In this document: one piece after another, positions 36,038 through 61,652 of the stretch
How the letters are laid out: each line of letters opens with the position of its first letter
How positions within the stretch are numbered: the stretch's first letter is position 1
From: Candidatus Falkowbacteria bacterium
Lineage (GTDB): Bacteria; Patescibacteriota; Patescibacteriia; Patescibacteriales; WJLG01
NCBI GenBank assembly: GCA_963747695.1
Contig: CAVVFV010000001.1
Location: forward strand, 36,466-100,465
Length of the DNA stretch: 64,000 bases
Reading direction: 5' to 3'
Position numbers and translations under genes: made by a program
Notes under the pieces: generated by a model
Database searches by the model: none
Told to the model about the DNA's origin: nothing
Seen by the model: only the letters and a program-made list of their open reading frames with translations

Positions 36038-36150
36038 TGATGCGAACCTACGAATTGTTCGCGAATACTACGAATAGATTTAACGAATTACAATAAAACA
36101 ATTCGATAAATAGTTCGCGGTATTCGCGTATAATTTGTAGTATTCGCATT
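36038..36150. repeat. family B ('gcgaat/attcgc') long hairpin, subfamily B2
   Basis: ctacgaattgttcgcgaatactacgaatagatttaacgaatt...aaatagttcgcggtattcgcgtataatttgtagtattcgcat. The arms recur at 57331-57563 and 61548-61652. Confidence 0.8.
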
Positions 36151-36170
36151 ATATTATAAAATCAATTAAC

Positions 36171-36533
36171 ATGCCTGAACCAAAAGAAAAAAAAGCGAAG
36201 AAAGCGGTTGAAGCTGAACAAGAAGTGAAGCAGAAGATCCGCATCAAGATCAAGGCTTTTGATCATAAGATAATCGATAAATCGACCAAGACGATCATCG
36301 ATACCGTGGAAAAAAGCAACGCCAAGATTTTTGGTCCGATCCCTTTGCCGACCGAAAAAATCAAATATACCGTTAACCGTTCGACCTTCGTCAATAAGGA
36401 CGCCAGAGATCAATATGAAATGCGCGTCCACAAGAGATTGATCGATATCGTTGAACCGACCGCCAAAACTGTTGAAGATCTGACCAACTTGAATCTGCCG
36501 GCCGGCGTTGATGTGGAAATTAAAATGGTCTAG
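36171..36533 (+). CDS. rpsJ: 30S ribosomal protein S10 (Lys/Glu-rich N-terminal extension)
   Basis: [25 protein letters not shown]...GPIPLPTEK...HKRLIDI. Confidence 0.93.
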
Positions 36534-36602
36534 TATTTAGTTTTAAGTTCATTTTTATAGATAAAGCCCGACTATTGTTTTTTTAACTCCCTTATTCAAG
36601 AA

Positions 36603-36690
36603 GTTAATTAGTCGATTAGTCACTTAGTTGAATAACTGATAATGTTTTTCAAATTGTAGACTAAGTACCTAATCAACTAATTAACTAATT
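36603..36690. repeat. family F ('cgattagttaattag') hairpin
   Basis: gttaattagtcgattagtcacttagt...actaagtacctaatcaactaattaac. The right arm is identical to 18040-18070. Confidence 0.7.
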
Positions 36691-36767
36691 TTAGGGAAAG
36701 TGTTTAAATGATAGTATTTGGCTGATTGAGGAGAAAAAATCAACAAACATTAGCACAAAATTGAATA

Positions 36768-36796
36768 TTGACTATTTTTTGATAATAAGTTATCAT
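36768..36796 (+). promoter_or_regulatory. sigma70-like promoter inside the rpsJ-rplC spacer
   Basis: TTGACT (36768-36773), a 17-nt spacer, then TATCAT (36791-36796). Confidence 0.4.
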
Positions 36797-36855
36797 TATC
36801 TTAGTCATTTTTTGTGAAATTGACCATTTGTTGAAAGGTCAGTTTTTTATTTTAG

Positions 36856-36968
36856 ATTGATGCTAATCCGCGAATGAACACGAATGCCGCGAAAACCGCG
36901 AATCGTTTCATTGAAAAGATATTCGCATTTTTCGCGGCATTCGCATCAATTCGTAGATTCGCATCATA
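36856..36968. repeat. family B long hairpin, subfamily B1
   Basis: ...cgaatgccgcgaaaaccgcgaat...attcgcatttttcgcggcattcgcatcaattcgtagattcgcatcat. It ends 4 nt before the rplC ATG. Confidence 0.8.
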
Positions 36969-36972
36969 TTTT

Positions 36973-37701
36973 ATGAAATTTATCGTCGGTAAGAAAATTG
37001 AGATGACCCAGATCTGGCAAGGAGAAAATGTCATGCCCGTTACCAAAGTTCAGGCCGGACCGTGTTTTGTTACTCAAATTAAAACTAAAGAAAATGACGG
37101 CTATGAAGCGGTGCAGATCGGTTTTGGCAATAAAAAAGAAAAGAACAGCAAAAAACCGCAACTCGGCCATTTGAAACAAGTTAAGGCCAAGGGAATTACC
37201 GAAAATTTTCAGTTTTTACGTGAATTTATTCCGGGAAAGGATAATAAGAATGCTTTTGAGATCGGCGATAAGATCGATGTCAGCGCTTTCGCTGCCGGCG
37301 ATATTGTCGCTGCGACCGGAGTTTCCAAAGGCCGCGGTTTTCAAGGCGTGGTAAAACGGCACGGCTTCCAGGGCGGCCGGAAATCTCATGGCAATAAAGA
37401 CCAATTAAGAATGCCGGGTTCCACCGGCGCGACCGGCGCGGGCCACGTTTTCAAAGGCACGAAAAAACCGGGACGGATGGGCACGGAAACGACTACCACC
37501 AAGAATCTGGAAATCATCGAAATCGATCAAGCCAACAATTTTTTATATGTTAAAGGCGGAATTGCCGGGGCGAGAAACAGCTTGGTGTTGATCCAGGGAG
37601 CCGGCGATATGATTCTCCTGAAACCGGCCGTTGAAAAAAAGGAAGAAATCAAGCCGGTGGAAGCAGCGGCTGAAAAGGAAGAAGTAAAAAGTAATAAGTA
37701 A
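36973..37701 (+). CDS. rplC: 50S ribosomal protein L3
   Basis: MKFIVGKKIEMTQIWQGENVMPVTKVQAGPC...GFQGVVKRHGF. The track's start at 36874 translates the hairpin repeat. Confidence 0.94.
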   Translation: MKFIVGKKIEMTQIWQGENVMPVTKVQAGPCFVTQIKTKENDGYEAVQIGFGNKKEKNSKKPQLGHLKQVKAKGITENFQFLREFIPGKDNKNAFEIGDKIDVSAFAAGDIVAATGVSKGRGFQGVVKRHGFQGGRKSHGNKDQLRMPGSTGATGAGHVFKGTKKPGRMGTETTTTKNLEIIEIDQANNFLYVKGGIAGARNSLVLIQGAGDMILLKPAVEKKEEIKPVEAAAEKEEVKSNK

Positions 37702-37712
37702 AAAGTAAAAAA

Positions 37713-38411
37713 ATGGCGATAAAGTTAAACGTCTACAATCAAAACGGCGAAGTGAAAGGCCAGAAAGAATTATCTGAGAAGATTTTCGGCGTGAAGGCGA
37801 GCACCGCCCTGATTAATGAAGCGGTCACCGCGCAATTGGCCAACGAACGCCAGGTTTTGGCGCATACCAAGACCCGCAGCGAAGTCAGAGGCGGCGGCAA
37901 GAAACCGTGGCGCCAAAAGGGTACGGGCAGAGCCAGAGCCGGTTCGTCCCGCTCTCCGCTTTGGATCGGCGGCGGTATAATTTTTGGTCCGAATTCCGAT
38001 CGTAATTTTTCCAAGAAGATCAATAAGAAAGCCAAACGCAAGGCGATGTTTATGGTCTTGTCGGATCGCGCCGCCCAGAACGGTTTGGCCATCATGGAAA
38101 ATCTGACCCTGGAAAATTATCAGACTAAAGTGATGGATGGAATTTTGAATAATTTGGAAGAAAAAGTTTTTAAAAATTTTAAGATTGAAGAAAAGAAAAA
38201 ATCCAAGGACAAGAAAGTCAGATCGACCGGCCGCAGCATTCTGTTGATCAACGATGCCAATGATCAAAAAGTGATCAATTCGGTAAGAAATCTGACCGGC
38301 GCGAAGATCATCAACTTGGAAAATATCAATGTCGTCGACCTGCTGCATCATAAGAATCTGATTATCTCGGCGAAGGCGATCGATAAACTCGAAGCTATTT
38401 ACAAAGAATAG
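37713..38411 (+). CDS. rplD: 50S ribosomal protein L4
   Basis: HTKTRSEVRGGGKKPWRQKGTGRARAGSSRSPLWIGGG. Confidence 0.92.
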   Translation: MAIKLNVYNQNGEVKGQKELSEKIFGVKASTALINEAVTAQLANERQVLAHTKTRSEVRGGGKKPWRQKGTGRARAGSSRSPLWIGGGIIFGPNSDRNFSKKINKKAKRKAMFMVLSDRAAQNGLAIMENLTLENYQTKVMDGILNNLEEKVFKNFKIEEKKKSKDKKVRSTGRSILLINDANDQKVINSVRNLTGAKIINLENINVVDLLHHKNLIISAKAIDKLEAIYKE

Positions 38412-38437
38412 AACTGGACAATATAAAAAAAGAAATT

Positions 38438-38923
38438 ATGCCAATATTTGGAAAGAATAAAGCTGAAGAAAAGAAGCAGGACGAAAAAAAATCGCCCTCC
38501 GTTAGCGGCGCCAAGAAAGTGAAGCCAGCGGCGAAAAAATCCATGAAGGATCTTTACGGCGCAGGCAAGGAAACGGCGGCGGTTTCGACGGTCAAAGAGG
38601 AAGGAAAGCCCGAGATCAAGAAGGATTCCGCGGTTGTCTCCAGCGCTTTTCGCGTCTTGCTCCGTCCGTTAGTCACTGAGAAAGGCAGCCATCTGGGAGT
38701 TCTCAATAAGTATTTGTTTGAAGTCGATTATAATACCAACAAGATCGAAGTGGCCAAGGCGATCGAGGCTGCTTACGGCGTCAAACCGACCAAAGTGAAT
38801 ATCATCAAACTGGCCGGCAAGGTCATGCGCCGGGGCAGAACCGTCGGCCGCCGGAAGAATTGGAAAAAGGCGATTGTCACCTTACCGGAAGGAAAAACAA
38901 TCCAGATCTACGAAGGAATCTAA
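38438..38923 (+). CDS. rplW: 50S ribosomal protein L23 (N-terminal extension of about 70 aa)
   Basis: LLRPLVTEKGSHL...YLFEVDYNTNKIEVAKAIEAAYGVKPTKVNI. Confidence 0.88.
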   Translation: MPIFGKNKAEEKKQDEKKSPSVSGAKKVKPAAKKSMKDLYGAGKETAAVSTVKEEGKPEIKKDSAVVSSAFRVLLRPLVTEKGSHLGVLNKYLFEVDYNTNKIEVAKAIEAAYGVKPTKVNIIKLAGKVMRRGRTVGRRKNWKKAIVTLPEGKTIQIYEGI

Positions 38924-39034
38924 GGCAAGATAAGAAATAAAAAGATAAGAGAGAAGACATTTGAGGTAAGGAAACAAGATTTTTATAAATATTCATTCTT
39001 AAATCTCTTATCGCTTATCTGAAATCTGATTAAT

Positions 39035-39877
39035 ATGGGTATCATAAAAGTAAAACCGAATACGGCGGCGAGAAGAGAATTCGTTTTTGACGATTTTGCC
39101 GATATCACTTCCACTCATCCGGAGAAAAGTTTGTTATTGCCGAAAAAGTCCACCGGCGGCCGGAATTTCCAGGGAAAAATAACCACCCGGCATAAGGGCG
39201 GCGGCGTCAAGCGCGCCATCAGAATCGTCGATTTCAAACGCGAAAAATATGACATTCCTGCCACGGTCAAGACGATCGAATACGATCCGGGCCGCGGCGC
39301 GAGAATCGCTTTGCTTTTCTATGCCGATGGCGAAAAGAGATATATCGTTGCTCCAGTCGGTCTGAAGGTTGAAGATAAAATCTTAAGTTCCCAGAAAAAT
39401 ATTGAGATAAAAACCGGTAACGCGATGCCGATCAAGTTCATTCCCGCCGGCGTTTCCGTTTCCAACGTTGAACTTTTCCCCGGCCAGGGCGGCAAGATCG
39501 CCCGCAGCGCCGGCAATGCCGTTACGGTGATGGGTGTCGAAGGTGATTTTGCCCAGTTAAGGATGCCGTCCAGCGAAATCCGCTTGGTCAACAAAGAATG
39601 TCTTTGCACGATCGGTCAGGCCAGCAATCCTGATCATATGAATATCATCATCGGTGCGGCCGGCCGCCAGAGAAGATTGGGCATCCGCCCGACGGTCCGC
39701 GGTACCGCGATGAATCCTAATGACCACCCGCATGGTGGTGGCGAAGGTAAGCAGCCGATCGGTTTGAAGCATCCGAAGACTCCTTGGGGCAAACCGGCTC
39801 TCGGAGTGCCGACCAGGAAGCATCAGTATTCGGATAATCTGATCGTTCATAGAAGAAAAAAGAGAATTGAAAAATAA
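39035..39877 (+). CDS. rplB: 50S ribosomal protein L2
   Basis: GRNFQGKITTRHKGGGVKR...MNPNDHPHGGGEGK. Confidence 0.97.
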   Translation: MGIIKVKPNTAARREFVFDDFADITSTHPEKSLLLPKKSTGGRNFQGKITTRHKGGGVKRAIRIVDFKREKYDIPATVKTIEYDPGRGARIALLFYADGEKRYIVAPVGLKVEDKILSSQKNIEIKTGNAMPIKFIPAGVSVSNVELFPGQGGKIARSAGNAVTVMGVEGDFAQLRMPSSEIRLVNKECLCTIGQASNPDHMNIIIGAAGRQRRLGIRPTVRGTAMNPNDHPHGGGEGKQPIGLKHPKTPWGKPALGVPTRKHQYSDNLIVHRRKKRIEK

Positions 39878-39880
39878 ATT

Positions 39881-39989
39881 ATGATGCGAATGCCGCGAAT
39901 TGTATACGAATGCCGCGAAAACCGCGAATAATAAATTATCTGATTCGCATTTTTCGCAGCATTCGCGTTAATTCGCGGATTAGCATCAG
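39881..39989. repeat. family B long hairpin, subfamily B1
   Basis: atgatgcgaatgccgcgaattgtatacgaatgccgcgaaaaccgcgaata...attcgcatttttcgcagcattcgcgttaattcgcggattagcatcag. The reverse complement of the left arm matches the right arm at about 80% by eye. Confidence 0.85.
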
Positions 39990-39995
39990 CTATAT

Positions 39996-40352
39996 ATGTC
40001 CAGAAGTTTAAAAAAGGGTCCATACGTAAACCCCAGAATAATCAAAAAGATCAAGAATCTTAAGCCCGGCGATAAAACCGTGATTAAGGTTTGGGATCGA
40101 GCCTGCAGCATCACTCCGGAAATGGTGGGATTTACGATTGGCGTGCATAACGGCCGACAGCACATTCCGGTTTATGTCGTGGAAAATATGGTCGGTCATC
40201 GGTTGGGTGAATTTTCTTTAACCAGAAAGTTCGTCGCTCACGGCGGCAAGATCGCTAAGGCCGAAGCGGCCGAAGAAGCGGAAGCGGGAAAACGGACGGC
40301 AGAAGCTCCGGCCAATGGCGCAGCTAAGGCGCCAGTAGAAAAGAAAAAATAA
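39996..40352 (+). CDS. rpsS: 30S ribosomal protein S19 (Ala/Glu-rich C-terminal extension)
   Basis: [11 protein letters not shown]...[29 protein letters not shown]. Confidence 0.94.
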
Positions 40353-40389
40353 AAGACACAATCCAAATTTTTCGAAATATTTGAACATT

Positions 40390-40518
40390 AAATCCGAAGC
40401 ACGAAATCCGAAATCCTAAACAAATTCAAAGCATTAAATCCGAAATTCAAAACGTTTTGAATTTTGAACATTTGGATTTTGAATTTGTTTAGGATTTGGT
40501 GCTTAGAATTTCGGATTT
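40390..40518. repeat. family C ('aaatccgaaat') long hairpin
   Basis: aaatccgaagcacgaaatccgaaatcctaaacaaattcaaa...aaaacgtttt...tttgaatttgtttaggatttggtgcttagaatttcggattt. A second copy lies at 46976-47105. Confidence 0.8.
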
Positions 40519-40561
40519 TAAAGTTTTTTAAAGAATCATAGTATTAAAATAAGTTATAAAC

Positions 40562-41101
40562 ATGGAGATTAAAGTCAAACTAAAATTTATCCGGATGTCT
40601 TCGAAAAAGCTGCGCTTGGTGGCCAATCTTATTCGCGGCTCCCAAGTTGACTTGGCTTTGAATCAGTTGCGCTTTGCCAATAAAAAAGCGGCCGAACCGA
40701 TCGCCAAGCTGCTTAAGTCAGCCATCGCCTCGGCGGCCAATGATTTCGAATTGGATAAGAATAATCTGTTCGTTAAGGAAATAAGAATCGATGAAGGCGG
40801 AATGCTGAAACGCTGGACCCCCAAGGCCCACGGCAGCGCCACGCCGATCCGCAGACGGTTAAGCCATATCAATATCGTTTTGGGCGAACTGAAAGCTTCC
40901 GGAGTGACGGCGGCGAAAAAGAAAGAAGTGGAAGCGCCGATTTCTTTGGAAGAAATGGTCAAGGAAGGGGAAAAGACCGCTAAGAAAGAACCGAGCAAAG
41001 ATATTAAGAAAGAAACGCCCGGCAAGGATTTTAAGAATGAAGGCGCTTCGAAGAAAGGTTTCGTCAATAAAATGTTCCAGAGAAAAAGCGGCAACGGCTA
41101 A
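40562..41101 (+). CDS. rplV: 50S ribosomal protein L22 (Lys-rich C-terminal extension)
   Basis: IRMSSKKLRLVANLIRG...AAEPIAKLLKSAIASAAN...KRWTPKAHGSATPIRRRLSHI. Confidence 0.9.
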   Translation: MEIKVKLKFIRMSSKKLRLVANLIRGSQVDLALNQLRFANKKAAEPIAKLLKSAIASAANDFELDKNNLFVKEIRIDEGGMLKRWTPKAHGSATPIRRRLSHINIVLGELKASGVTAAKKKEVEAPISLEEMVKEGEKTAKKEPSKDIKKETPGKDFKNEGASKKGFVNKMFQRKSGNG

Positions 41102-41105
41102 AAAA

Positions 41106-41206
41106 TTAGTATTTAGTATAAAGTATCTGGTATTTAGTATATTATTTTCGAAGAGAAAATTTTTAACTAGACACCAAATACTTTATACCAAATACTTTAT
41201 ACTAAT
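41106..41206. repeat. family E ('tatttagtat / ataccaaatac') hairpin
   Basis: ttagtatttagtataaagtatctggtatttagtat...acaccaaatactttataccaaatactttatactaa. Confidence 0.75.
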
Positions 41207-41211
41207 ATCGT

Positions 41212-41907
41212 ATGGGAAAAAAAGTAAATCCAAAAATTTTCAGAATCGGCATTAATCGGACTTGGCCGTCCGTCTGGTTTGCTACTGGCCAGGATTATAT
41301 CAAGAATACCAGGCAAGACGTGCAAGCGCGGAGATTTTTGATGAATGAACTGAAAGAAGCCGGCATTGATAATGTCCGGATTGAAAGAGGAGTGAAGAAG
41401 ATTTCTTTTGACATCACCGCTTCCAAGCCGGGTGTGATCATCGGCCGCGGTGGCAACGGTATCGAAGATTTGAAGAAAAAAGTCCATGATAAGTTTTTGA
41501 AGAATTTCCGTTTGAAGGAGATCAATCTCAATATCAAGGAGTGCGATCGCCCGAATCTGAGCTCGCAGATCGTTATGCAGTCGATCATCGCCGATATTGA
41601 AAAGCGTATGCCTTTCAAGCGCACGATGAAGCAGGCTGTTTCCCGCGTGGAAAAAGCCGGCGGCCTGGGAGTCAAAGTCGTGGTGGCCGGACGGTTGAAT
41701 GGCGCGGAAATCGCCCGCGAGGAGAAATTAGTTTCCGGAAAGATCCCTTTGCAGACTTTGAGAGCTGATATTGATTATTCCCGCGGCGTGGCCAAGACCA
41801 CTTACGGCACGATCGGCGTCAAAGTCTGGATCTATAAAGGCGAAGTTTTTGAAAAAGATTTGAAGAATAAAGACGGCAAAGGAGAAATATTAGGCCGGAG
41901 AAAGTAA
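41212..41907 (+). CDS. rpsC: 30S ribosomal protein S3
   Basis: MGKKVNPKIFRIGINRTWPSVWFA...GRLNGAEIAREE. Confidence 0.96.
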   Translation: MGKKVNPKIFRIGINRTWPSVWFATGQDYIKNTRQDVQARRFLMNELKEAGIDNVRIERGVKKISFDITASKPGVIIGRGGNGIEDLKKKVHDKFLKNFRLKEINLNIKECDRPNLSSQIVMQSIIADIEKRMPFKRTMKQAVSRVEKAGGLGVKVVVAGRLNGAEIAREEKLVSGKIPLQTLRADIDYSRGVAKTTYGTIGVKVWIYKGEVFEKDLKNKDGKGEILGRRK

Positions 41908-41938
41908 ATCATAAAATAATACCAAATACGATACAAAT

Positions 41939-42349
41939 ATGTTGATGCCCAGAAAAACTAAATATCGCAAGTCCCATAAAGGCAAAAGAGGCGGCAAAGC
42001 CACTAGCGGCCTGTCGGTTAGTTTTGGCAGTTATGGCCTTAAGTCTTTGGAAAATTGCTGGGTGACAGCGAGACAGATCGAAGCGGCCCGCCGCGTTTTG
42101 ACCAGATATATCAAGAAGGGCGGCAGAATTTTCTGCCGGATCTTCCCGGCCAAGCCGGTTACCGCCAAGGGCGGCGAACTGCCGATGGGTAAGGGCAAAG
42201 GTTCGGTCGATCATTATGTTTGTAATGTAAAGCCGGGGATGGTGATGTTTGAGATCGAAGGCGTTACCGAAGCGGAAGCCAAAGAAGGAATGAAATTCGC
42301 CGGAGATAAGTTGCCGGTCAAATCGCGGTTTGTTAAAGCCAACGAGTAA
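41939..42349 (+). CDS. rplP: 50S ribosomal protein L16
   Basis: MLMPRKTKYRKSHKGKRGG...ARQIEAARRV. Confidence 0.95.
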   Translation: MLMPRKTKYRKSHKGKRGGKATSGLSVSFGSYGLKSLENCWVTARQIEAARRVLTRYIKKGGRIFCRIFPAKPVTAKGGELPMGKGKGSVDHYVCNVKPGMVMFEIEGVTEAEAKEGMKFAGDKLPVKSRFVKANE

Positions 42350-42354
42350 TAAAT

Positions 42355-42465
42355 ATGATGCGAATGCCGCGAATTGTATGCGAATGCCGCGAAAACCGCG
42401 AATAGGTTTAGAAAATATATTCGCATTTTTCGCGGAATTCGCGATAATTCGTAGATTTGCATCAG
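42355..42465. repeat. family B long hairpin, subfamily B1
   Basis: atgatgcgaatgccgcgaattgtatgcgaatgccgcgaaaaccgcgaata...attcgcatttttcgcggaattcgcgataattcgtagatttgcatcag. It is near-identical to the 39881 copy. Confidence 0.85.
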
Positions 42466-42471
42466 CTATAT

Positions 42472-42660
42472 ATGGAATTCAAAGAATTATCCAAGAAAAC
42501 TGAAAAAGAATTGCAAGCGATCTTATCCGAATATCGGGAGAAATTAAGATTGGCCCGTTTTAAGGATGCCAATAAGCAGTTGAAAAATGTCCGGGAGATC
42601 AGAGTAACCAGAAATGTCATCGCCAACGTGTTGACCTTGCTTAATTTGAACAAGAAATAA
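42472..42660 (+). CDS. rpmC: 50S ribosomal protein L29
   Basis: MEFKELSKKTEKELQAILSEYREKLRLARFK. ATG 42472 is preferred; the track's 42457 start lies in the repeat. Confidence 0.85.
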   Translation: MEFKELSKKTEKELQAILSEYREKLRLARFKDANKQLKNVREIRVTRNVIANVLTLLNLNKK

Positions 42661-42671
42661 TTTAAATTTAT

Positions 42672-42923
42672 ATGGATCAGGATAAAAAAGTCAGCAAAAG
42701 AAAGTTTGTCGGAATAGTTACCAGCGACAAGATGGACAAGACCATCTCGGTCCAGGTGATCACTGTTAAGCGCAACCAAAAATATAAAAAGACTTATTTC
42801 ATTTCCAAGAAATATAAGGTTCATGATGAAAAAAATCAGTTCAAGGAAGGGGATAAGGTGGAATTCATCGAATGCCGCCCGTTAAGCAAAGATAAGAAAT
42901 GGAGAGCGATCGGCAAAAAGTAA
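42672..42923 (+). CDS. rpsQ: 30S ribosomal protein S17
   Basis: KRKFVGIVTSDKMDKTISVQV...KYKVHDEKNQFKEGDKVEFIECRPLSKDK. Confidence 0.9.
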   Translation: MDQDKKVSKRKFVGIVTSDKMDKTISVQVITVKRNQKYKKTYFISKKYKVHDEKNQFKEGDKVEFIECRPLSKDKKWRAIGKK

Positions 42924-42978
42924 AAAGTTAAAAGTAAAAAGTTAAAAGTAAAAAGTTAAAAGTAAGAAGTAGAAAGTT
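42917..42978. repeat. heptamer tandem repeat GTWAAAA (family J)
   Basis: gtaaaaa gttaaaa gtaaaaa gttaaaa gtaaaaa gttaaaa gtaagaa gtagaaa starts at the rpsQ stop. Related runs lie at 22226-22268, 37684-37711 and 45853-45890. Confidence 0.75.
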
Positions 42979-43041
42979 TACCAGTAATTGCCGGTAAATA
43001 ATAATATACTTAATACTTTATACCAAATACTAAATACTAAT

Positions 43042-43413
43042 ATGATCCAGGTCGGAACAAGATTAAGAGTAGCTGACAATACCGGCGCCAAAGAGGCGGA
43101 GTGCATCAGAGTTAACGGTACTTACGGCAAAAGATACGCTACCATCGGCGATATCATTACTTGCGCGGTTAAGCAGGCGATTCCGCATGCTCCGGTCAAG
43201 AAAAGCGATGTCGTCAAGGCGGTCGTGGTCAGAACTAAGAAAGAGATCAAAAGAAAAGACGGCACTTGTCTGCGCTTTGACGAGAATGCCTGCGTTATTG
43301 TCGATGCCGATAAAGGCGAACCCAAAGGAACGAGAATTTTCGGTCCGATCGCCCGCGAGGTGAGAAGAAAGGGATTCGTAAAAATAGCTTCGTTAGCTCC
43401 GGAAGTACTATAA
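43042..43413 (+). CDS. rplN: 50S ribosomal protein L14
   Basis: [18 protein letters not shown]...; ATG 43042. Confidence 0.96.
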
Positions 43414-54696: not shown

Positions 54697-54716
54697 TTAT
54701 TGGCAGGTGCCGTGCG

Positions 54717-54783
54717 GCAGTCTCCTGCAAGGGACTGCTGCTGTCGGCAATCGCGCCGCAGTCCCGAGGCGGAGACTGCGGCG
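54717..54783. repeat. two 'gcagtc...gactgc' GC hairpins (copies 2a and 2b)
   Basis: gcagtctcc-tgcaa-gggactgc (54717-54738) and cgccgcagtc-ccgaggcgga-gactgcggcg (54754-54783). Confidence 0.7.
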
Positions 54784-54795
54784 AGGCAAAAAAAT

Positions 54796-55329
54796 ATGGA
54801 TACTTCACGACTGGAAATCGAGAGCGAAAGACTCCGACTGAAAGCGGTATCATTAGATTATCAGGAAGAAATATTCCGGGAATTCACTGCTGAAATTACC
54901 GTTTTTATGGTTCCCGAGCCGCCGAGAAAGAATGCCGATACCATCGAATATATTCAAGGCGCTATGCGCAAGAATAAAGCGGGCGAAGATTTTTCCGCGT
55001 CAATTTTTGATAAAAAAAACGGGGAATTTTTGGGTGGAGGCGGATTGACTCATATCAAAAGCCGGGAACCGCACCTCGGCATCTGGATAAAAAAATTAGC
55101 CCACGGTCATGGATATGGCAAGGAAGCCGTCAATGCCCTGAAAGAATGGGCCGAGGAAAATCTTGATTATGACTATTTGGTTTATCCGGTGGATCGGGCT
55201 AATTATTCCAGTCGCCGGATCCCGGAATCCTTGGGTGGAAAAATTTCTGCCGAATATGAAAAAATCTGTCCGAGCGGAAAAAAGCTGAATACAGTTGAGT
55301 ATCGGATTTATAAAAGTACGCGAACATAA
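54796..55329 (+). CDS. GNAT family N-acetyltransferase (RimJ/RimL-like)
   Basis: ESERLRLKAVSLDYQEEIF...GIWIKKLAHGHGYGKEAVNALKEWA...ANYSSRRIPESLGG. ATG 54796 is preferred; the track's 54700 start translates GC-rich repeat DNA. Confidence 0.7.
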   Translation: MDTSRLEIESERLRLKAVSLDYQEEIFREFTAEITVFMVPEPPRKNADTIEYIQGAMRKNKAGEDFSASIFDKKNGEFLGGGGLTHIKSREPHLGIWIKKLAHGHGYGKEAVNALKEWAEENLDYDYLVYPVDRANYSSRRIPESLGGKISAEYEKICPSGKKLNTVEYRIYKSTRT

Positions 55330-55336
55330 AACGCGG

Positions 55337-55366
55337 AGAGAGGCTATCAAGCCTCTTTTTGCTTTT
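55337..55366 (+). terminator. rho-independent terminator
   Basis: agaggc-tatcaa-gcctct followed by ttttgctttt. Confidence 0.6.
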
Positions 55367-55430
55367 ATTGTTAAAAAATACTATAATTTAAGCAATATAA
55401 TTTTTAATTTTAACTTTTAATTGAATATCT

Positions 55431-56366
55431 ATGGATCAAACAACCGCGGCTGCCGCGCCGGTCAAAAGCAATGCGGCCAAATTCGTTTTTCTGTATCTTT
55501 TGCACCTGGTAGCGCTCGGTTTTATGACCGTTTCTTTCGGCAATGTCATTTTTCAGATAATTAACAAGTATATTCCCGATGTCACCGCGCCATACATTGA
55601 AAATAAATTCGCCATTTCCGCTCTATTGGTTTCAATCCCGATTTTTTACGTGGTGAGTTTCCTGATTCAGAAAAGCTTATTTTCGGGAGAACTTAAAAAA
55701 GATTCCGCGATCCGCCGCTGGCTGACTTATCTTATCTTGTTCGTTTCCTTCCTGATATTTTTCGGCTGGCTGATCTATTTTGTGAATAGCTATTTGAACG
55801 GCGAAGTGACCACCAGATTTATTTTGAAGACGATCGCCGTTTTAGCGATCGCCGGCGCCGTTTTCGGATTTTATTTTTACGACATCCGGCGATCGGTTGT
55901 GGAAAACGTCAAAGATAAACTCTTGAAAATATTTTTCATCACCTCGCTCGTCCTCGTCGTCGCCGTTTTTGTCGCTTCGTTTTTTACGGTTGAATCGCCG
56001 ACTTTGGCGCGCGACCGGAAGTTGGATGATCAGATAACCAATGTTTTTAACGACATCTACCAGTGCGCTGACTCCTATTATAATCAAACGCAGAAATTGC
56101 CCGACGGTTTCGCGACGATGATTTCCCAATGCCCTTATTTGACCTCGGATAATCTCAATGATTTTCAAACGGGTCAGCCGTACGCCTATCAAATCACCGG
56201 CACAACGACCTATCAGATTTGCGCTAATTTTAGGACTTCTAACATTGGCACGGCCAATAATCCGCAAGGCATCTATCCGGCAGCTCCCAGCTATAATGGT
56301 TCGGCGCACGATTCCGGTTATCAATGCCTTAAGGGGCAGGTCTTCCCGGCGGTAAAAGTAAATTAG
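55431..56366 (+). CDS. multi-pass membrane protein of unknown function
   Basis: Five or six hydrophobic segments in the N-terminal 200 aa, then a soluble Cys-containing C-terminal domain. Confidence 0.5.
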   Translation: MDQTTAAAAPVKSNAAKFVFLYLLHLVALGFMTVSFGNVIFQIINKYIPDVTAPYIENKFAISALLVSIPIFYVVSFLIQKSLFSGELKKDSAIRRWLTYLILFVSFLIFFGWLIYFVNSYLNGEVTTRFILKTIAVLAIAGAVFGFYFYDIRRSVVENVKDKLLKIFFITSLVLVVAVFVASFFTVESPTLARDRKLDDQITNVFNDIYQCADSYYNQTQKLPDGFATMISQCPYLTSDNLNDFQTGQPYAYQITGTTTYQICANFRTSNIGTANNPQGIYPAAPSYNGSAHDSGYQCLKGQVFPAVKVN

Positions 56367-56395
56367 AAAATTATAAATTTGAATTGTAAATATTT

Positions 56396-56428
56396 AAAGA
56401 TCTCCCTGCCTGGGGAGATCTTTAAAAT
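56396..56428 (+). terminator. hairpin terminator
   Basis: aaagatctccc-tgcct-ggggagatcttt. Confidence 0.5.
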
Positions 56429-56575
56429 TATCTAAGGTTGTCGGTCGACAAAGTATTTAATAAAAAGTGCTTGGATAAAATTTTTTTTAGTGGTATAATC
56501 TAAAAAAGGGATTGTCTTGCCTAGTTTTGCGCAAAATCTCTTCCCATAAAAAATTAAACATGCTATAATATCATT

Positions 56576-57238
56576 ATGAGTAAGAAAGCATCCTCCGCAG
56601 CCAAAGTTCCGGGGGATAAGAAAAATAAATCTTCCGCCCCGCTGATGAAATATTTATCAGGGAAGGGGATTGTTCCGAAAGTTTTGGATCACAAAACCGT
56701 TTATACCGCGATTGATGCCGCCAATACTTTGAAAAGAAGAATGGATGAGATTGTTAAATCACTTTTAGTAAAGGCGGATAATTATTATTACATCGTTTGT
56801 CTGCCGGCTAACCAAAATTTGGATTTTGCCAAGATCAAGCAGGCGATCGAAAAACAAGTCGGAGTCAAAGTGAAAACCGTTCAGATCCCTTCGGAAAAAG
56901 TGATGCGGGAGATTTTAAAACTAAAAGATGAAGGGGTGACCGCTTTCGGCGGCTACCATAATTTGCCTATCTTAGCAGAAAAAAAGCTTGCCGGGCTGAG
57001 TAGGGCAGTATTCTCTTCAGGAAGTTTTGATCGTTCGCTGGAATTGAAGGTTAAGGATTTTCTCCGTCTGGAAAATGCGGTTTTAGCCAATTTTGGCATA
57101 AACAAGAAAGTTAAATTAACTAAATCGCGCCGACCTTCACCGCTTAAGATGAAGCCCAACGCGAATAAAACAATGGCTAAGAAAAAAAAGGCTGCCAAGA
57201 AGTCTAAGAAAAAGACTTCGAAGAAGAAGAAGAAATAA
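56576..57238 (+). CDS. YbaK/aminoacyl-tRNA-editing-domain-like protein with Lys-rich tail
   Basis: The weak pattern match IVKSLLVKADNYYYIVCLPANQNLDFAKIK...GVTAFGG resembles YbaK/EbsC deacylases. The C-terminus is KKKKAAKKSKKKTSKKKKK. Confidence 0.5.
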   Translation: MSKKASSAAKVPGDKKNKSSAPLMKYLSGKGIVPKVLDHKTVYTAIDAANTLKRRMDEIVKSLLVKADNYYYIVCLPANQNLDFAKIKQAIEKQVGVKVKTVQIPSEKVMREILKLKDEGVTAFGGYHNLPILAEKKLAGLSRAVFSSGSFDRSLELKVKDFLRLENAVLANFGINKKVKLTKSRRPSPLKMKPNANKTMAKKKKAAKKSKKKTSKKKKK

Positions 57239-57257
57239 ATCGGCAGTTTCGAGGAGG

Positions 57258-57296
57258 ATCCGCTTCGGCTCGTATGGGCTGAAGCGGATTTTCGTT
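57258..57296 (+). terminator. rho-independent terminator
   Basis: gatccgcttc...gaagcggat followed by tttcgtt. Confidence 0.55.
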
Positions 57297-57330
57297 ATTG
57301 GGCGTTATTCTTTTGCCAAATTCGGTTACA

Positions 57331-57563
57331 TAATGCGAATACTGCGAATTATAATCAAATACTACGAACAAAATTCGACGTGAAGGCGTTGTTTTAGTTT
57401 TAAAAAGTAAGACAAATCGGTGGATAAATGGCCTTCCGAAGACCGGTAATTTCTGATAAAATATGAACATATGCGAAGACTGTAAATGATCTGACGAATC
57501 GTGAGGATAATTTTGTTAAATAGTTCGTAGTATTCGCGTATAATTTGTAGTATTCGCATCATA
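57331..57563. repeat. family B hairpin, subfamily B2, with about 135 nt inserted between the arms
   Basis: Left-arm words are atgcgaatactgcgaattataatcaaatactacgaac. The right arm aaatagttcgtagtattcgcgtataatttgtagtattcgcatcat is near-identical to 36108-36150. Confidence 0.7.
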
Positions 57564-57580
57564 TAATCAAGCTTTTCGAA

Positions 57581-58294
57581 ATGATAAACGTTAAACTGGA
57601 AAAATTTGAGGGTCCGCTATCTTTATTGCTGAAGATCATTGAGACGGAAAAGATGGATATCGCTGAGATTTCGTTGGCGAAAATCGCCGATCAATACGTG
57701 GAATTCATCCGCACGACCGCCGATATCGATCCTGACGCGATGGCGGATTTTTTAGTGGTGGCGGCCAAGCTGCTTTATCTGAAATCGCGGGCGCTTTTAC
57801 CTTATCTTTTCCCGGCCGAAGCGGAGGATGCTGATGATCTGGAACGGCAATTGAAAATGTACCGGGAATTTCTGGAGGCGATGAAAAAGTTGGAACAGCG
57901 GTTGAAGGAAAAAAAGTTTATGTTTGCGCCGAGCGAGCGGAAACTCTGGAAAATGATCGGCACGGAAGAAAAATTTTTCGCCCCGCCGAAAAAATTGGTC
58001 AAAGAAGATCTGGCGGCGGTTTTCCGGGAATTTTTGGTAAACAAGAAAATCATCTGTCTGGAAGAAGAAACGATCCAATGCAAGGTGAATATCGAGGAAA
58101 AGATCCGGGGCATCCGCGATGCGCTCTTAGCCAAGATCAATTTAAGTTTCCGGGAATTTTTGGCCAAGGCCGAATCTAAAACCGAGATCATCGTCAGTTT
58201 TTTGGCGGTGCTGGAATTAATGAAGCAGAAAACAATCTCGGTGGAGCAAAGCGAATTGTTTGCCGAAATATTTATTAGCAGCAAAAATGAATAA
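57581..58294 (+). CDS. scpA: segregation and condensation protein A
   Basis: FEGPLSLLLKIIETEKMDIAEISLAKIADQY. Confidence 0.88.
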   Translation: MINVKLEKFEGPLSLLLKIIETEKMDIAEISLAKIADQYVEFIRTTADIDPDAMADFLVVAAKLLYLKSRALLPYLFPAEAEDADDLERQLKMYREFLEAMKKLEQRLKEKKFMFAPSERKLWKMIGTEEKFFAPPKKLVKEDLAAVFREFLVNKKIICLEEETIQCKVNIEEKIRGIRDALLAKINLSFREFLAKAESKTEIIVSFLAVLELMKQKTISVEQSELFAEIFISSKNE

Positions 58295-58389
58295 TGAAAA
58301 TTGTAAAAGTCAAAATGTAAAATTATGGAGTCCGCGGCGGACGAAATTAATTAATTTTCCATTTTGAGATTTACATTTTAAAATTACAA
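58294..58389. repeat. family H hairpin
   Basis: atgaaaattgtaaaagtcaaaatgtaaaatt...tccgcggcgga...aattttccattttgagatttacattttaaaattacaat. Confidence 0.65.
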
Positions 58390-58390
58390 T

Positions 58391-59038
58391 ATGTTTTTAT
58401 CATCACAAATAGAGTCATTGTTATTCATTTCCGGCCGGCCGATGTCGGCCAAGGAATTATCGGATTTGACCGAAAGTTCAGTTAAGGATATCGAGCAAGC
58501 CGGAGAAAAATTGGCGGCCGATTACAAGGAAAAAAATGCCGGAACCCAGATCATCAAAAACGGATCAAGCTGGCAGATGGTGACCTCGTCGGATAACGCC
58601 GCCCTGATCCAAAAATTCGTTACCGATGAAACAACCGGGGAGTTAACCAGGCCCAGCTTAGAGACCTTGACAATCATCGCTTACCGCGGACCAGTTTCGA
58701 AAACCGATTTGGATCGCATCCGTGGTATAAATTGTTCGCTAATATTACGTAATTTATTAATAAGGGGCTTAGTCGATGTCCGGGAAGACCGAAAAAAAGA
58801 CGAAAGTTATTATACGGTAACGTTTGATTTTTTACGCTTCTTAGGCTTAAATGAGGTTAAGGAATTGCCCGACTATGATAAATTGAGCAAAGATGATACG
58901 ATTGATCGAATCCTCGAGGACAATCCGCTCTCAGAAAAGCTCGGCGTCAATCAGCCGGCATTGGATCTGGCAGGCGGCGAAGATCAGGCGTCGGCAGATG
59001 ACGACGATGAAGATGAACTTGACGAAGAAACTGAATAA
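58391..59038 (+). CDS. scpB: segregation and condensation protein B
   Basis: IESLLFISGRPMSAKELS...TLTIIAYRGPVSKTDLDRIRG. Confidence 0.88.
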   Translation: MFLSSQIESLLFISGRPMSAKELSDLTESSVKDIEQAGEKLAADYKEKNAGTQIIKNGSSWQMVTSSDNAALIQKFVTDETTGELTRPSLETLTIIAYRGPVSKTDLDRIRGINCSLILRNLLIRGLVDVREDRKKDESYYTVTFDFLRFLGLNEVKELPDYDKLSKDDTIDRILEDNPLSEKLGVNQPALDLAGGEDQASADDDDEDELDEETE

Positions 59039-59076
59039 TTAAATCTTTTTATCAGTTGGTGAGGTAATTTGAGATT

Positions 59077-59532
59077 ATGAAAGATGTTTTGGAAAACGAA
59101 TCAATTATCAATCATGAAGTTCATGCTGAAGAATTAGAAAATGACGGCTGGCAGACTTTGAATTGGCACGATTGGAAATATGCGACGCGGGATAAAACCA
59201 TCAAACAGTACCAGACTAAACAGATTGATGAGGCCGTTAAATGGTATTGCCAAACTCATCAGACCACGATTCCCGAGTACGTCAAGAATAAACCGACCGA
59301 AGAATATGACCTGGCGGCGCAATTGAAGATTGGCCAAGCGATCAAAGAATATCTGATGCGGATCGACCCGAATACCGGTCTGAAGGGCAGTGAGATATTT
59401 TCCCGGGAACATTTGATGTATCGCGATTTGCCGGAAGAGACGATCAAAACGGAATATAAGAAATACGAGGAACAGGAAAAAGCCTGGCAAGCAGAGCTGC
59501 TTAAGCGAAGCAAAAGCGAGCCACGGTTCTGA
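59077..59532 (+). CDS. hypothetical protein (151 aa)
   Basis: ORF only. Confidence 0.4.
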   Translation: MKDVLENESIINHEVHAEELENDGWQTLNWHDWKYATRDKTIKQYQTKQIDEAVKWYCQTHQTTIPEYVKNKPTEEYDLAAQLKIGQAIKEYLMRIDPNTGLKGSEIFSREHLMYRDLPEETIKTEYKKYEEQEKAWQAELLKRSKSEPRF

Positions 59533-59574
59533 GGAGGAAATTTTCAGCAGTTATCAATTATTTCTAATAATATT

Positions 59575-60615
59575 TTGCGCAAAAATAAGTTATCTATCAT
59601 ATTTCTCCTGGTTACTGCGGTCGTGGCCGCTTGTTTTTTGTTTTTTAATATTGATTATTCTCTGTTTGGCGCTTATGCCGGTGAAAATCTGGCTAAACCG
59701 CTTTCCGATAGCCCGGGCAAGGTACTGGCGGCCGTGGAAGGCCTGCAGGTGGCGCCGCAGCAGACTTACGCGGCTTTTTATCCCGAATACAATCTGCCCC
59801 AGAATGCCAATAAAATAGGCACGCCCAGCCAGATCAGCGGCGGTTACAATCTGGCGATTGAGGCTTCTTCCAGCATCGCGATTGATTGCCACAGCGGCGA
59901 AATCCTGTGGGACAATGAATCCGACACGGTCCGGCCGATCGCCAGTATTACCAAACTGATGACGGCGTTGGTTTTTCTGAGTTCCAATCCTGACTGGAAT
60001 AAAATTTATGAATTGCAGAAAGAAGACGTGCGCGTCGGCGGTAAAAGTTATATTTATCCCGGCGATCAGGTCAAGGTCAAAGATCTTTTTTATTTGACCC
60101 TGGTCGGTTCGGATAATACGGCGGCGGTCGCCTTGGCCAGATCAATGGGGTTGACTGAGGCCGAGTTCGTCGCCAAAATGAACCAACAGGCCAAGGATTT
60201 CGGCTTGACCAAGACCAAATTCGAGGATATTTCCGGTTTAAGCGACGGCAACGTTTCCACGGCCCGCGAGATTTTGGCCTTGGCGAAAAGGTGTCTCGCT
60301 AATGAAAAAATCCGCGACACGACGATTGAAGAAAATTACGAATTTTCTACCGTGGGCGGACGCGATGTCCAAGTCCAATCGACCGACGCGCTCCTTTCAG
60401 TTTTTCCGGTTGACGGCATAAATATCATCGGCGGCAAAACCGGCCATACTGATGAGGCCGGCTATTGTTTCGTCGGCGAATTCATCAATCAAGCCGGCCA
60501 TAAAATAATGTCAGTCGTGATGGGCACCAACTCCGACGAAGATCGTTTCGCCCAAACCAAGAAACTGGTGAAATGGGCATATGATAATTATAGTTGGACT
60601 GAAAGTAATAAATAG
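59575..60615 (+). CDS. D-alanyl-D-alanine carboxypeptidase (S11 / PBP5-like)
   Basis: SITK (SxxK), SDN, KTG (GGKTGHT), an N-terminal membrane anchor, and a TTG start. Confidence 0.8.
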   Translation: MRKNKLSIIFLLVTAVVAACFLFFNIDYSLFGAYAGENLAKPLSDSPGKVLAAVEGLQVAPQQTYAAFYPEYNLPQNANKIGTPSQISGGYNLAIEASSSIAIDCHSGEILWDNESDTVRPIASITKLMTALVFLSSNPDWNKIYELQKEDVRVGGKSYIYPGDQVKVKDLFYLTLVGSDNTAAVALARSMGLTEAEFVAKMNQQAKDFGLTKTKFEDISGLSDGNVSTAREILALAKRCLANEKIRDTTIEENYEFSTVGGRDVQVQSTDALLSVFPVDGINIIGGKTGHTDEAGYCFVGEFINQAGHKIMSVVMGTNSDEDRFAQTKKLVKWAYDNYSWTESNK

Positions 60616-60654
60616 ACTTATTGCGATAAATATAATATAATTTAAACAAACTAA

Positions 60655-60728
60655 TGTTATATTGTCATATTGTTATATTGTTACGCAACGATTTAAAAAT
60701 GTTTAACAATATAGCAATATAACAATAT
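60655..60728. repeat. family A ('caatat') long hairpin
   Basis: tgttatattgtcatattgttatattgttacgcaacg...aacaatatagcaatataacaatat. Confidence 0.8.
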
Positions 60729-60740
60729 AAATAAATATTT

Positions 60741-61532
60741 ATGTCTAAACAAGAAAAAATGGCGGGCAAAGCCGGTAAATTAATCATTGGCAACTGGAAA
60801 ATGAAAAAGGGCCTCATGGAAAGCGTTGCTTTGGCCAAGGAAATGGTGGAAAAATTTAAGGATTTCAAAGAGGATGGCAAAGAAGTGGTGCTTTGTCCGA
60901 CTCTGGTGGCTTTAACCGAAGTCGACAAGGTAGTAAAGAAAAGCAATCTGAAATTGGGCGCGCAAAACGTCTTTTGGGAAGATCGCGGCGCTTATACCGG
61001 CGAGGTTTCGCCGCAAATGCTGATCGAGGCGGGCTGTCAATATGTGATCATCGGCCACTCGGAGAGAAGAAAATACCTGTTGGAAAATTACGCGATGATC
61101 CACCAGAAGATCCGCGAGGTATTGAATACTGAAAAATTGATTCCGGTAGTTTGCATCGGCGAAGAAAATGAAGACCGCAAGACCGACCGGCGGGATTTTG
61201 TATTATTGAATCAGCTGCAGCAAGCTTTGGGCGGGATCGATATTTCCGAAAACCAGCGGATCGTCGTTGCTTATGAACCGGTCTGGGCGATTGGTTCAGG
61301 AACCGCTATCGAGCCTTCCGAGGCGATGTATGCCCATAAAATCATCCGCTTGGCGTTAGATGATATGTTCGGCATGCAGGCGGTGGAAAAAAGCTTCCAG
61401 ATCGTTTACGGCGGCAGCGTCACCGGCAAGAACGTCAAATCGTTCAGCAATTTGGAAAATATGGATGGCTTATTGGTCGGCGGCGCCAGCCTGGACGCGG
61501 AAGAATTTTATAAGATTTGTCGAGGAATATAA
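60741..61532 (+). CDS. tpiA: triosephosphate isomerase
   Basis: GNWKMK, IIGHSERR, YEPVWAIGSG, GGASL. Confidence 0.96.
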   Translation: MSKQEKMAGKAGKLIIGNWKMKKGLMESVALAKEMVEKFKDFKEDGKEVVLCPTLVALTEVDKVVKKSNLKLGAQNVFWEDRGAYTGEVSPQMLIEAGCQYVIIGHSERRKYLLENYAMIHQKIREVLNTEKLIPVVCIGEENEDRKTDRRDFVLLNQLQQALGGIDISENQRIVVAYEPVWAIGSGTAIEPSEAMYAHKIIRLALDDMFGMQAVEKSFQIVYGGSVTGKNVKSFSNLENMDGLLVGGASLDAEEFYKICRGI

Positions 61533-61547
61533 TTTTTGGAAATATAT

Positions 61548-61652
61548 AATACGAATACTACGAATTGTTCGCGAATACTACGAATAGATTTAACGAATTT
61601 AATTCGGTAAATAGTTTGCGGTATTCGCGTATGATTTGTAGTATTCGCATCA
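61548..61652. repeat. family B long hairpin, subfamily B2
   Basis: aatacgaatactacgaattgttcgcgaatactacgaatagatttaacgaattt...aaatagtttgcggtattcgcgtatgatttgtagtattcgcatcat. Confidence 0.8.

Follow-up and report, generated by a model that had tools for sequence, protein, structure and literature searches.

The 64-kb window analysed here (64,000 nt of contig CAVVFV010000001.1 from Candidatus Falkowbacteria) carries family B, a set of seven long imperfect hairpins and one half element located directly upstream of start codons, including several within the S10-spc ribosomal-protein operon. Using this window together with ~1.4 Mb of relatives' loci, we propose with moderate confidence that family B represents non-autonomous palindromic repeats comparable to miniature inverted-repeat transposable elements (MITEs), REPINs or Correia elements, i.e., selfish DNA that would be co-transcribed with its neighboring genes and tolerated. 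An earlier note on this DNA had listed a palindromic mobile (MITE/REP-like) element among several candidate roles. We favour this option since presence/absence and replacement at orthologous sites, together with the near-identity of copies found at unlinked loci and in different species, suggest that family B behaves as fast-turning-over, tolerated mobile DNA and not as a conserved control element.

Architecture of the family B copies

All eight copies reported in the earlier note were recovered, together with the genes to which they had been assigned (rpsJ, rplC with its start at 36973, rpsS, rpmC, rplX, rplF, scpA and a tetratricopeptide repeat (TPR) gene), and blastn of the window with six elements as queries matched these eight places only, so that the multi-copy nature of the family is directly observed. 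The proposed division into three subfamilies agrees with the repeat families, as B1 corresponds to D15/D16, B2 to D11 and B3 to the B3 pair. All copies are given here on the + strand. Within B1, the full hairpin B1a (36858–36966, z −7.9) is located between a conserved leader hairpin with a T-run and the rplC ATG, B1b (39882–39988, z −6.2) occupies the rplB–rpsS spacer from 4 nt past the stop codon to 7 nt before the ATG, and B1c (42356–42464, z −8.0) occupies the rplP–rpmC spacer from 6 nt past the stop to 7 nt before the ATG. Within B2, the full hairpin B2a (36038–36151, −50.1 kcal/mol, z −8.6) ends in the tuf–rpsJ spacer 19 nt upstream of the rpsJ ATG, B2c (61546–61653, z −7.5) occupies the spacer between tpiA and the TPR gene and overlaps with its 3′ end the ATG at 61652, and B2b (57331–57563) is a long variant upstream of scpA, whose arms (57331–57378 and 57512–57563) enclose a centre of ~130 nt with a conserved TGATAAAAT (extended −10-like) motif. 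The B3 pair consists of B3b (45232–45300, −38.7 kcal/mol, z −9.0), a short hairpin in the rpsH–rplF spacer ending 8 nt before the ATG, and of the half element B3a (43421–43453), a solo 5′-type arm in the rplN–rplX spacer that does not fold alone (z −0.3) and is a perfect 33-nt inverted copy of the B3b 3′ arm (45268–45300), 1.8 kb away.

When RNA folding was compared with 200 dinucleotide-preserving shuffles, the six compact hairpins reached −38.7 to −55.3 kcal/mol on the + strand (z −6.2 to −9.0, with 0/200 shuffles equally stable) and folded about equally well on the − strand (z −6.6 to −8.9), while the spacer of B2b gave a z of about −6. These values uphold, on both strands, the earlier expectation of imperfect stems of about 45–50 bp that are more stable than shuffled controls, and the predicted structures are single hairpins with 3–17-nt loops. 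The placement of the copies is also non-random within the window, as had been anticipated, since 8/8 lie in its non-coding 14.9% (P about 2e-7), and their 3′ ends are found −2 to 19 nt from an ATG, i.e., directly upstream of start codons.

The arms are built from words. The family B word is GCGAAT with a period of 9, and two CGAAT-type words spaced by 9–11 nt form a unit of ~20 nt that is not self-complementary, is present about twice per arm and has the 3′ arm consensus ATTYGTAG(T)ATTYGSATYAT. The GCGAA words described for the 5′ arm and the TTCGC words described for the 3′ arm are indeed present, but they do not serve as a mark of orientation, because the same holds for both strands of any palindrome. 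The ends of the family read ATGATGCGAAT ... ATTCGCATCAT. B1b and B1c have 5′ arms that are 96% identical (46/48) and a common right-hand tail, CAGCTATAT, which runs to the ATG.

Orthologous spacers in relatives

Comparison of RplB assigns the window to Patescibacteria, close to Candidatus Falkowbacteria, with L046 as the nearest species representative (RplB 89%) and L086 as the nearest metagenomic relative (RplB 94%). Both show about 84% nucleotide identity to the window across the operon, and blastn alignments to them end at each stop codon and restart at the next ATG, so their spacers are not homologous to those of the window. Among ~70 relatives, the rplB–rpsS, rplP–rpmC, rplN–rplX and rpsH–rplF spacers are mostly 1–35 nt long, AT-rich and without inverted repeat, and a scattered minority displays in these four spacers word hairpins of 95–200 nt with quite different words. 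As an example, L046 carries ATACGAA, AGGTAAC or GAGCATA hairpins at the sites of B1b, B1c and B3b, and its rplN–rplX spacer (the B3a site) is empty with 24 nt. At the rplC site, B-like elements occur in L022, L006, L052 and L086, and none in L046 and most other relatives. According to our reading of the printed spacers, about 12/20 spacers differ between the window and L086, which has another family or none. L086 itself contains four near-identical hairpins of ~105 nt, loops included, in its rplB–rpsS, rplV–rpsC, rpsC–rplP and rplP–rpmC spacers, whose right tail ACATAAGGT is identical up to the ATG and whose left flanks vary. Some hairpins of other families are kept between genomes (rpsG–fusA and rpsE–rplO in L086, rplW–rplB and rpsZ–rpsH in L089).

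The earlier note had proposed to compare orthologous spacers in order to separate mobility from covariation: presence/absence and replacement are observed between species, and the arms do not co-evolve with their own partners. Because the spacers of relatives are usually empty or differently filled, the family B elements are best described as insertions whose gain, loss and replacement are faster than the divergence of the genes around them. Within the window, 5′ arms are most like other 5′ arms, and the best complement of an arm usually belongs to a different copy, which means that mismatches are inherited and not compensated.

Copies at unlinked sites and in other genomes

The distance between B2a, B2b and B2c in the window reaches 25 kb, and scanning metagenomes with the B2 3′ arm yielded four contigs. 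In L083, a full B2 element that shares 92% identity with B2a over 117 nt ends 8 nt before the ATG of an unrelated gene resembling a phosphoenolpyruvate (PEP)-utilising enzyme, and L085 contains a further copy that begins 1 nt past a stop codon and includes a nested GC palindrome. L082 and L084 are syntenic with 55.4–60.6 kb of the window and have a B2 element at the orthologous scpA site; its termini and its 3′ arm in full length hardly vary, and rearrangement is seen in its interior. The conservation of arms across species is thus directly visible: the B2 3′ arm is almost invariant over 7 copies in at least 4 genomes, and arms are 92–100% identical between genomes, as against 74–80% for genes, including the coding sequence flanking the scpA site. 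Conserved ends with a variable interior, which is the MITE pattern, and arms better conserved than the genes would be the product expected of a sequence-specific mobilising or binding protein, or of recent transfer. In addition, the L086 elements use the same ~19–20-nt unit as family B (ATTCGTAGATTTGGATTAT in L086, compared with AATTCGTAGATTCGCATCAT in B1 and ATTTGTAGTATTCGCATTAT in B2). With U for the unit and U′ for its inverse, its arrangement is UU-loop-U′U′ in L086, L013 and L088, and U′U′-loop-UU in the window and L032. Scans of viral contigs with the B1 and B2 patterns gave 0 matches.

Logan short-read contigs served as independent check assemblies, L081 corresponding to 37683–40414 and L090 to 51539–61587 of the window; B1b is identical in L081 and B2b in L090. 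Both ends of each contig fall inside word arrays or palindromes, L090 breaking within B2c at 61587, which shows that the elements fragment assemblies. Exact-protein look-ups for strain variation returned only identical contigs of the same genome or no match.

Family B as probable mobile DNA that is tolerated

Under the reading that we favour, family B arms are inverted around either a short, fast-evolving loop or a longer core, and the elements would spread by copy-and-paste or by conversion between spacers, with co-directional genes as targets, in whose 5′ leaders and short AT-rich spacers they would settle. Their gain, loss and replacement outpace by far the divergence of the flanking genes, and family B is one of several families of this kind in the genome. 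The structural features agree with those of a MITE, in that arms of 45–50 nt are conserved, loops or cores vary and multiple copies are present (8 in the window, and more in the four metagenome contigs and several relatives). Within operons, the element would be co-transcribed and its RNA would fold into a hairpin of 45–50 bp, so that the stop codon and the following start codon, along with a short open AU-rich linker, would remain near each other. Tolerance could then be explained by a hairpin that closes on itself in an organism that does without Shine–Dalgarno sites, and the placement upstream of starts would largely follow from the insertion itself, because insertion into spacers of 3–25 nt gives such a placement. 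We infer both the mobilising enzyme and any effect at the RNA level (RNase III cleavage, mRNA stabilisation or coupling). Among these, RNase III cleavage is a plausible consequence of the predicted stems, which would be longer than the at least about 20 bp of double-stranded RNA that an RNase III site, as between phage T7 genes, needs. Stabilisation, or coupling by a terminating ribosome, would be plausible consequences as well, and the geometry fits B1b and B1c.

A number of observations weigh against mobility. No transposase with matching ends was found, as the sole transposase of the window (rve/DDE, 14228–15214) has unrelated ends; no RAYT/Y1_Tnp protein or integrase is encoded among the window proteins; and no widely spaced inverted unit pairs surround a gene in the small sample of ~1.4 Mb of relatives' loci. 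As for target-site duplication, the flanks are AT-rich, and neither a clean direct repeat nor an empty allele close enough to define it was found. The ATG itself was tried as target-site duplication and discarded, since the terminal ATG/CAT (ATG/ATA...CAT/TAT) are inverted parts of the palindrome and since it is missing from the L086 copies. Word-built arms, frequent solo arms, the existence of both unit arrangements and the perfect B3a/B3b inverted copy, all atypical of classical MITEs, hint at slippage or template switching. Closely related copies share their right tail exactly to the ATG and vary in their left flanks (B1b/B1c and the L086 copies), and the uniform orientation of 7 B2-type sites would also fit a constraint acting at the RNA level or specific to a single strand. 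Moreover, highly expressed operons are densely populated with word hairpins, and the low-GC region at 1–13.5 kb has none. Our confidence remains moderate precisely because of the missing transposase and target-site duplication, the slippage-like features, which bear at least on the way in which families arise, the tails anchored on the ATG and the uniform orientation of B2.

There is also a second, tentative reading, to which we give a rather low probability: an undescribed, clade-wide system of word-built palindromic 'spacer cassettes', in which the copied unit would be anchored on the start codon and cassettes would overwrite each other in stop-to-start spacers. If this were true, a dedicated mechanism would be needed, either a single-strand- or hairpin-specific enzyme recognising the ~20-nt unit or a replication template-switch process restricted to these repair-poor genomes, and the hairpins might punctuate or couple the translation of polycistronic mRNAs without Shine–Dalgarno sites.

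Family B hairpins at the RNA level

We consider it unlikely that the hairpins are selected RNA elements of polycistronic mRNAs, serving as RNase III-type punctuation, as stabilisers or as devices for translational coupling. Coupling would mean that a ribosome which terminates 4–6 nt before the stem opens its base and frees the next start region, with no Shine–Dalgarno site involved. The translational context speaks partly for this explanation. Indeed, GGAG/GAGG at −20 to −4 is found in 3/64 genes only, which is not above the intergenic background, and starts are preceded by short AU-rich linkers, so that the organism appears to do without Shine–Dalgarno use. In B1b, B1c and many other hairpins the stem begins 0–7 nt past the stop codon and ends 4–8 nt before the ATG, and in long spacers the hairpin usually adjoins the ATG (about 8 cases vs 4, by our own count); however, the nearest upstream stop codon of B1a, B2a and B2b is 64–324 nt away. 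Openness of the −12..−1 region is somewhat reduced in genes with family B (0.39 vs 0.54), but the AUG itself is not masked, its accessibility being alike with and without hairpins (0.48, 0.45 and 0.39). Start-codon masking was therefore rejected as unsupported.

On the sense strand, B2 shows conserved G·U pairs and a more stable fold, whereas B1 copies have A·C and not G·U there. Across 301 hairpins identified with a strand-symmetric inverted-repeat finder in 1893 spacers, G·U-type mismatches numbered 572 sense vs 444 antisense, with the antisense type commoner in B1; this asymmetry is unusable as a sign of RNA-level selection, because the bias is weak and reversed in B1.

Regarding transcription, no promoter or terminator signal was above chance in the family B copies of S10-spc, so these copies must be co-transcribed. 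The two arms of B2b, in contrast, may not share a transcript, and the same applies to the AT-rich hairpin at 48869–49031 in the spacer between secY and the next gene, because promoter-like or terminator-like sites lie between the arms (at 48869–49031, a terminator-like stem at 48904–48923 and a promoter-like site at 48998–49026). The B2 3′ arm contains TATAAT, which was rejected as a promoter since no −35 of the TTGAC(A/T) type seen in the clear promoters of the organism accompanies it and since the scan of 35900–49100 did not pick up the B2a arm. The single orientation at 7/7 independent B2-type sites, defined by their asymmetry relative to the downstream gene, and the density of hairpins in translation operons would suit a selected RNA. 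Against this, orthologous spacers are empty in most relatives and filled by unrelated families in the nearest ones, arms do not covary with their own partner, and no RNA family matches: in Rfam only tRNA-Thr reaches the gathering score, a permissive search yielding sub-threshold generic miRNA-precursor hairpins, so that membership in a ribosomal-protein leader or other Rfam family was dismissed. The translational control listed in the earlier note is thus not supported as a conserved function, as orthologous spacers are usually empty and start codons unmasked.

Alternative explanations at the DNA level

A local origin without transposition also seems improbable to us. According to this explanation, slippage during replication makes the word arrays in AT-rich spacers, template switching inverts an array to give the second arm and conversion spreads the product to nearby spacers. 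Perfect hairpins are documented to arise by template switching (PMC8794818), and B3a, being a perfect inverted copy of an arm 1.8 kb away, would be of this kind. Tandem periods of 7–9 nt dominate the spacers, solo arrays lacking a partner arm are common, both arrangements of the ~20-nt unit exist and copies cluster in adjacent spacers. Words also change jointly within an arm, as in L046, which has ATATTG vs ACATTG with matching CAATGT, and in L086, with two uncompensated ATACTG. However, local events alone hardly account for whole elements with the same asymmetries that are found 25 kb apart and, in other species, before unrelated genes, and the difference in identity between arms and genes given above needs a sequence-specific constraint or transfer.

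Lower still in our estimation is the explanation that the ~20-nt units are DNA-binding sites for a regulator or a nucleoid/partition-type protein, arranged as operator- or iteron-like 2+2 inverted arrays whose hairpin potential is incidental. A spacing of 19–20 nt (about two helical turns), both inverted arrangements, the strong conservation of the unit across species and the position of the arrays just upstream of genes would all suit a bound protein. The genes concerned (rpsJ, rplC, rpsS, rpmC, rplF, scpA, the TPR gene and the PEP-utilising enzyme) nevertheless form no coherent regulon, intra-operon sites have no nearby promoter, equivalent positions are taken by at least five further families whose words are unrelated, and presence/absence is erratic between relatives.

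Finally, that family B stems are intrinsic terminators or attenuators, or autoregulatory leaders of ribosomal proteins, is scarcely credible, even though they are stable stems in a ribosomal-protein operon and B1a lies in the rplC leader, given that no T-run follows any of them, that the terminator scan (21 sites vs 18.4 expected, not above chance) picked 0 family B stems, that no Rfam leader matches and that the same element is found upstream of scpA and the TPR gene; the attenuation or termination option of the earlier note and membership among intrinsic terminators were both abandoned on these grounds. A true attenuator-like hairpin, followed by a T-run, does exist upstream of rplC, but it is conserved and distinct from family B.

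This feature lies in the rpsJ–rplC spacer (36768–36855), where a promoter-like site (TTGACT-17-TATCAT) precedes a hairpin with a T-run (TGACC...GGTCAGTTTTTTATTTT). The hairpin and its T-run are kept in most relatives as GCTGGTTT...ACCAGTTTTTTGTTT, distinct from B1a just downstream, and the region probably serves the rplC operon as leader or attenuator. A long, strongly structured leader (52539–52800, spacer z about −8) was also observed upstream of aspS, with a promoter-like TTGACA and a terminator-like stem before a word hairpin. It resembles a T-box-type leader, yet no Rfam family reaches the gathering score there.

Comparison with known systems

Correia elements and REPINs appear closest to family B in architecture and likely behaviour, by analogy and not as established membership in any known system. 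Correia elements (CREE/NEMIS) of Neisseria are non-coding palindromes of ~100–155 bp with long terminal inverted repeats and short and long forms, present in hundreds of intergenic copies that are often co-transcribed; their RNA hairpins can be cut by RNase III or can block it, and their ends can create promoters (PMC2649163). Family B shares the palindromic architecture, the short and long forms and the intergenic location, and its B2 3′ arm likewise carries TATAAT. In contrast, it has no sequence similarity to Correia elements, its arms consist of repeated 9–11-nt words in ~20-nt units, it lies inside the S10-spc operon abutting starts, and several unrelated families coexist and replace each other. 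Membership was rejected, since there is no sequence relation, the phylum is different and neither a TA duplication nor an IHF site, which along with 26-nt inverted repeats mark Correia elements, could be shown.

A REPIN consists of two inverted REPs that form one long hairpin and replicate as a unit, with bursts within genomes and lineage-specific families (PMC3116915, PMC3333891). Family B resembles REP, BIME and REPIN sequences as intergenic, often intra-operonic palindromes with a strand or orientation bias, but the B unit is not a short GC-rich hairpin and the stems are AT-rich and 45–50 bp long. We rejected membership in the REPIN–RAYT system, as the unit is not self-complementary and no window protein has a Y1_Tnp domain. 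The GTAG of the B unit and the 5′ motif of E. coli REPs share 4 nt, which we take to be a mere resemblance.

The MIRUs of Mycobacterium (Supply et al. 1997) are reportedly repeats of 40–100 bp in intercistronic operon spacers, with small open reading frames (ORFs) abutting the flanking stop and start codons. The intercistronic position is common to both, and B1b, B1c and B2a begin with ATGATG and contain, as read from their sequences, mini-ORFs of 16–19 codons that finish in the loop; MIRUs, however, are direct tandem repeats and not palindromes, and conservation of the family B mini-ORFs does not extend to B1a, B2c and B3b. The STRR sequences of heterocystous cyanobacteria (Mazel et al. 1990) are said to be intergenic tandem arrays of 7-nt words with many copies per genome; they differ from family B as mainly direct arrays, for which a paired inverted array or long hairpin is not the defining feature.

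The attC sites of integrons and the Vibrio cholerae repeats are similar as imperfect palindromes of ~60–130 bp after each gene of a co-directional row, near-identical within a genome and active as single-stranded hairpins, whereas family B is flanked by essential ribosomal-protein genes in conserved order and not by cassettes; with no RYYYAAC/GTTRRRY cores and no intI in the window, this candidate was set aside. In organelle genomes of green algae (Volvox and others), short palindromes flood the intergenic DNA and are read as selfish, with no known transposase (PMC2670323). The flooding of an otherwise compact genome is alike, while genome type and sequences differ, and word periodicity and start-codon anchoring are not reported there. 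TIGR (Tas-associated) arrays have units with box C/D-like motifs and with dual spacers in their loops, next to a tas gene that encodes a Nop domain (PMC12045711), and were excluded, because family B copies are single hairpins and no tas-like gene is present in the window.

Significance

Patescibacteria genomes are among the smallest and most streamlined in bacteria, and S10-spc is the most tightly packed and conserved bacterial operon. It is therefore unexpected to find most spacers of this operon filled with rapidly exchanging palindromes of 100 nt in such a compact genome, and this raises the question of how translation proceeds through or around hairpins of 45–50 bp without Shine–Dalgarno sites. 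The elements also have practical consequences, as they break short-read assemblies and mislead gene calling. As claimed earlier, they produce spurious N-terminal extensions: the public RplB call in L086 (10001–10879) has 292 aa, compared with 280 aa in the window. In addition, their rapid evolution could make them useful as strain markers. Recognition of the conserved ~20-nt unit by a dedicated enzyme, if it occurs, would mean a new mobile-element system in a poorly studied phylum. Among the results listed by full-text searches of the literature, we found no description of such elements in Patescibacteria (candidate phyla radiation), and we rate their interest as moderate to high on account of the location, the start-codon anchoring and the word architecture.

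Other word hairpins and further features of the window

At least six word-hairpin families, family B among them, fill most spacers between 22 and 62 kb. In all of them, one arm is a short tandem array of a 7–9-nt word and the opposite arm an array of the complementary word (e.g., ATATTGTT/AACAATAT, GTATCTC/AAATACG, AAATCCGAA, AATTTTT and TTAGTCGA). Inverted repeats with at least 20 Watson–Crick pairs occur in 27/68 spacers of the window, and at 22–62 kb nearly all spacers of at least 100 nt fold far better than shuffles (z −4 to −12). The following families are all given on the + strand, on which all window genes are located. The octamer family ATATTGTT/AACAATAT (repeat families D1, D5 and D9) is found at 31292–31389 and also at 26626–26708, 30079–30154, 33477–33571 and 60657–60730, and its rpsG–fusA copy is the one kept in L086. 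The heptamer family GTATCTC/AAATACG (D7, D19) forms hairpins at 44369–44475 and 41108–41196 and solo arrays at 41915–41936, 42999–43041 and 47575–47605, and is abundant in L046. The AAATCCGAA-word family (D12) has copies at 46976–47105 and 40384–40525, and an element of it is kept in the rpsE–rplO spacer of L086. The AT-rich family with AATTATA/TAATTTT words (I4, I5, I8, I9) includes the hairpin at 48869–49031, whose 5′ part is conserved in L046, and other AT-rich copies at 22513–22627, 30592–30714 and 52814–52903.

Tandem arrays of the 7-nt words AAGTAAA/AAAAGTA (up to 9 copies) without complementary arm were noted at 22236–22266, 37673–37711, 42915–42977 and 45857–45889. They lie at gene ends or in spacers, provide in-frame TAA stops and extend to the next ATG. 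Upstream of rpoB, a non-coding stretch of 938 nt (17606–18543) contains a long GC-rich inverted repeat (17688–17827) and a solo TTAGT-type arm (18028–18071) that is 89% identical to 36646–36689. Another GC-rich inverted repeat (54708–54788) falls in the aspS–GNAT spacer if GNAT starts at 54796, as called in L090, and not at the TTG at 54700.

The low-GC region at 1–13.5 kb has very tight spacers. At 1–15214, genes with a low GC content (0.39) for PEP-utilising-domain, PPDK_N, radical SAM, amidotransferase, pyridoxal phosphate (PLP)-enzyme and methyltransferase proteins are followed by the rve/HTH DDE transposase mentioned above (14228–15214), and this cluster could be a recently acquired island. 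At the other end of the window, 62535–62753 is a perfect 100-nt tandem repeat (2.2 copies), in which each unit opens with the initial ~18 nt of the gene for tRNA-Thr and continues with the GC palindrome CCCCGCCCACTGATGGGGCGGGG. The tRNA-Thr itself lies at 62736–62809, and a GIY-YIG ORF of 95 aa (62810–63097) adjoins its 3′ end; the repeat could reflect repeated partial duplication of the tRNA at a site of integration or homing, or could have arisen as an artefact of assembly.

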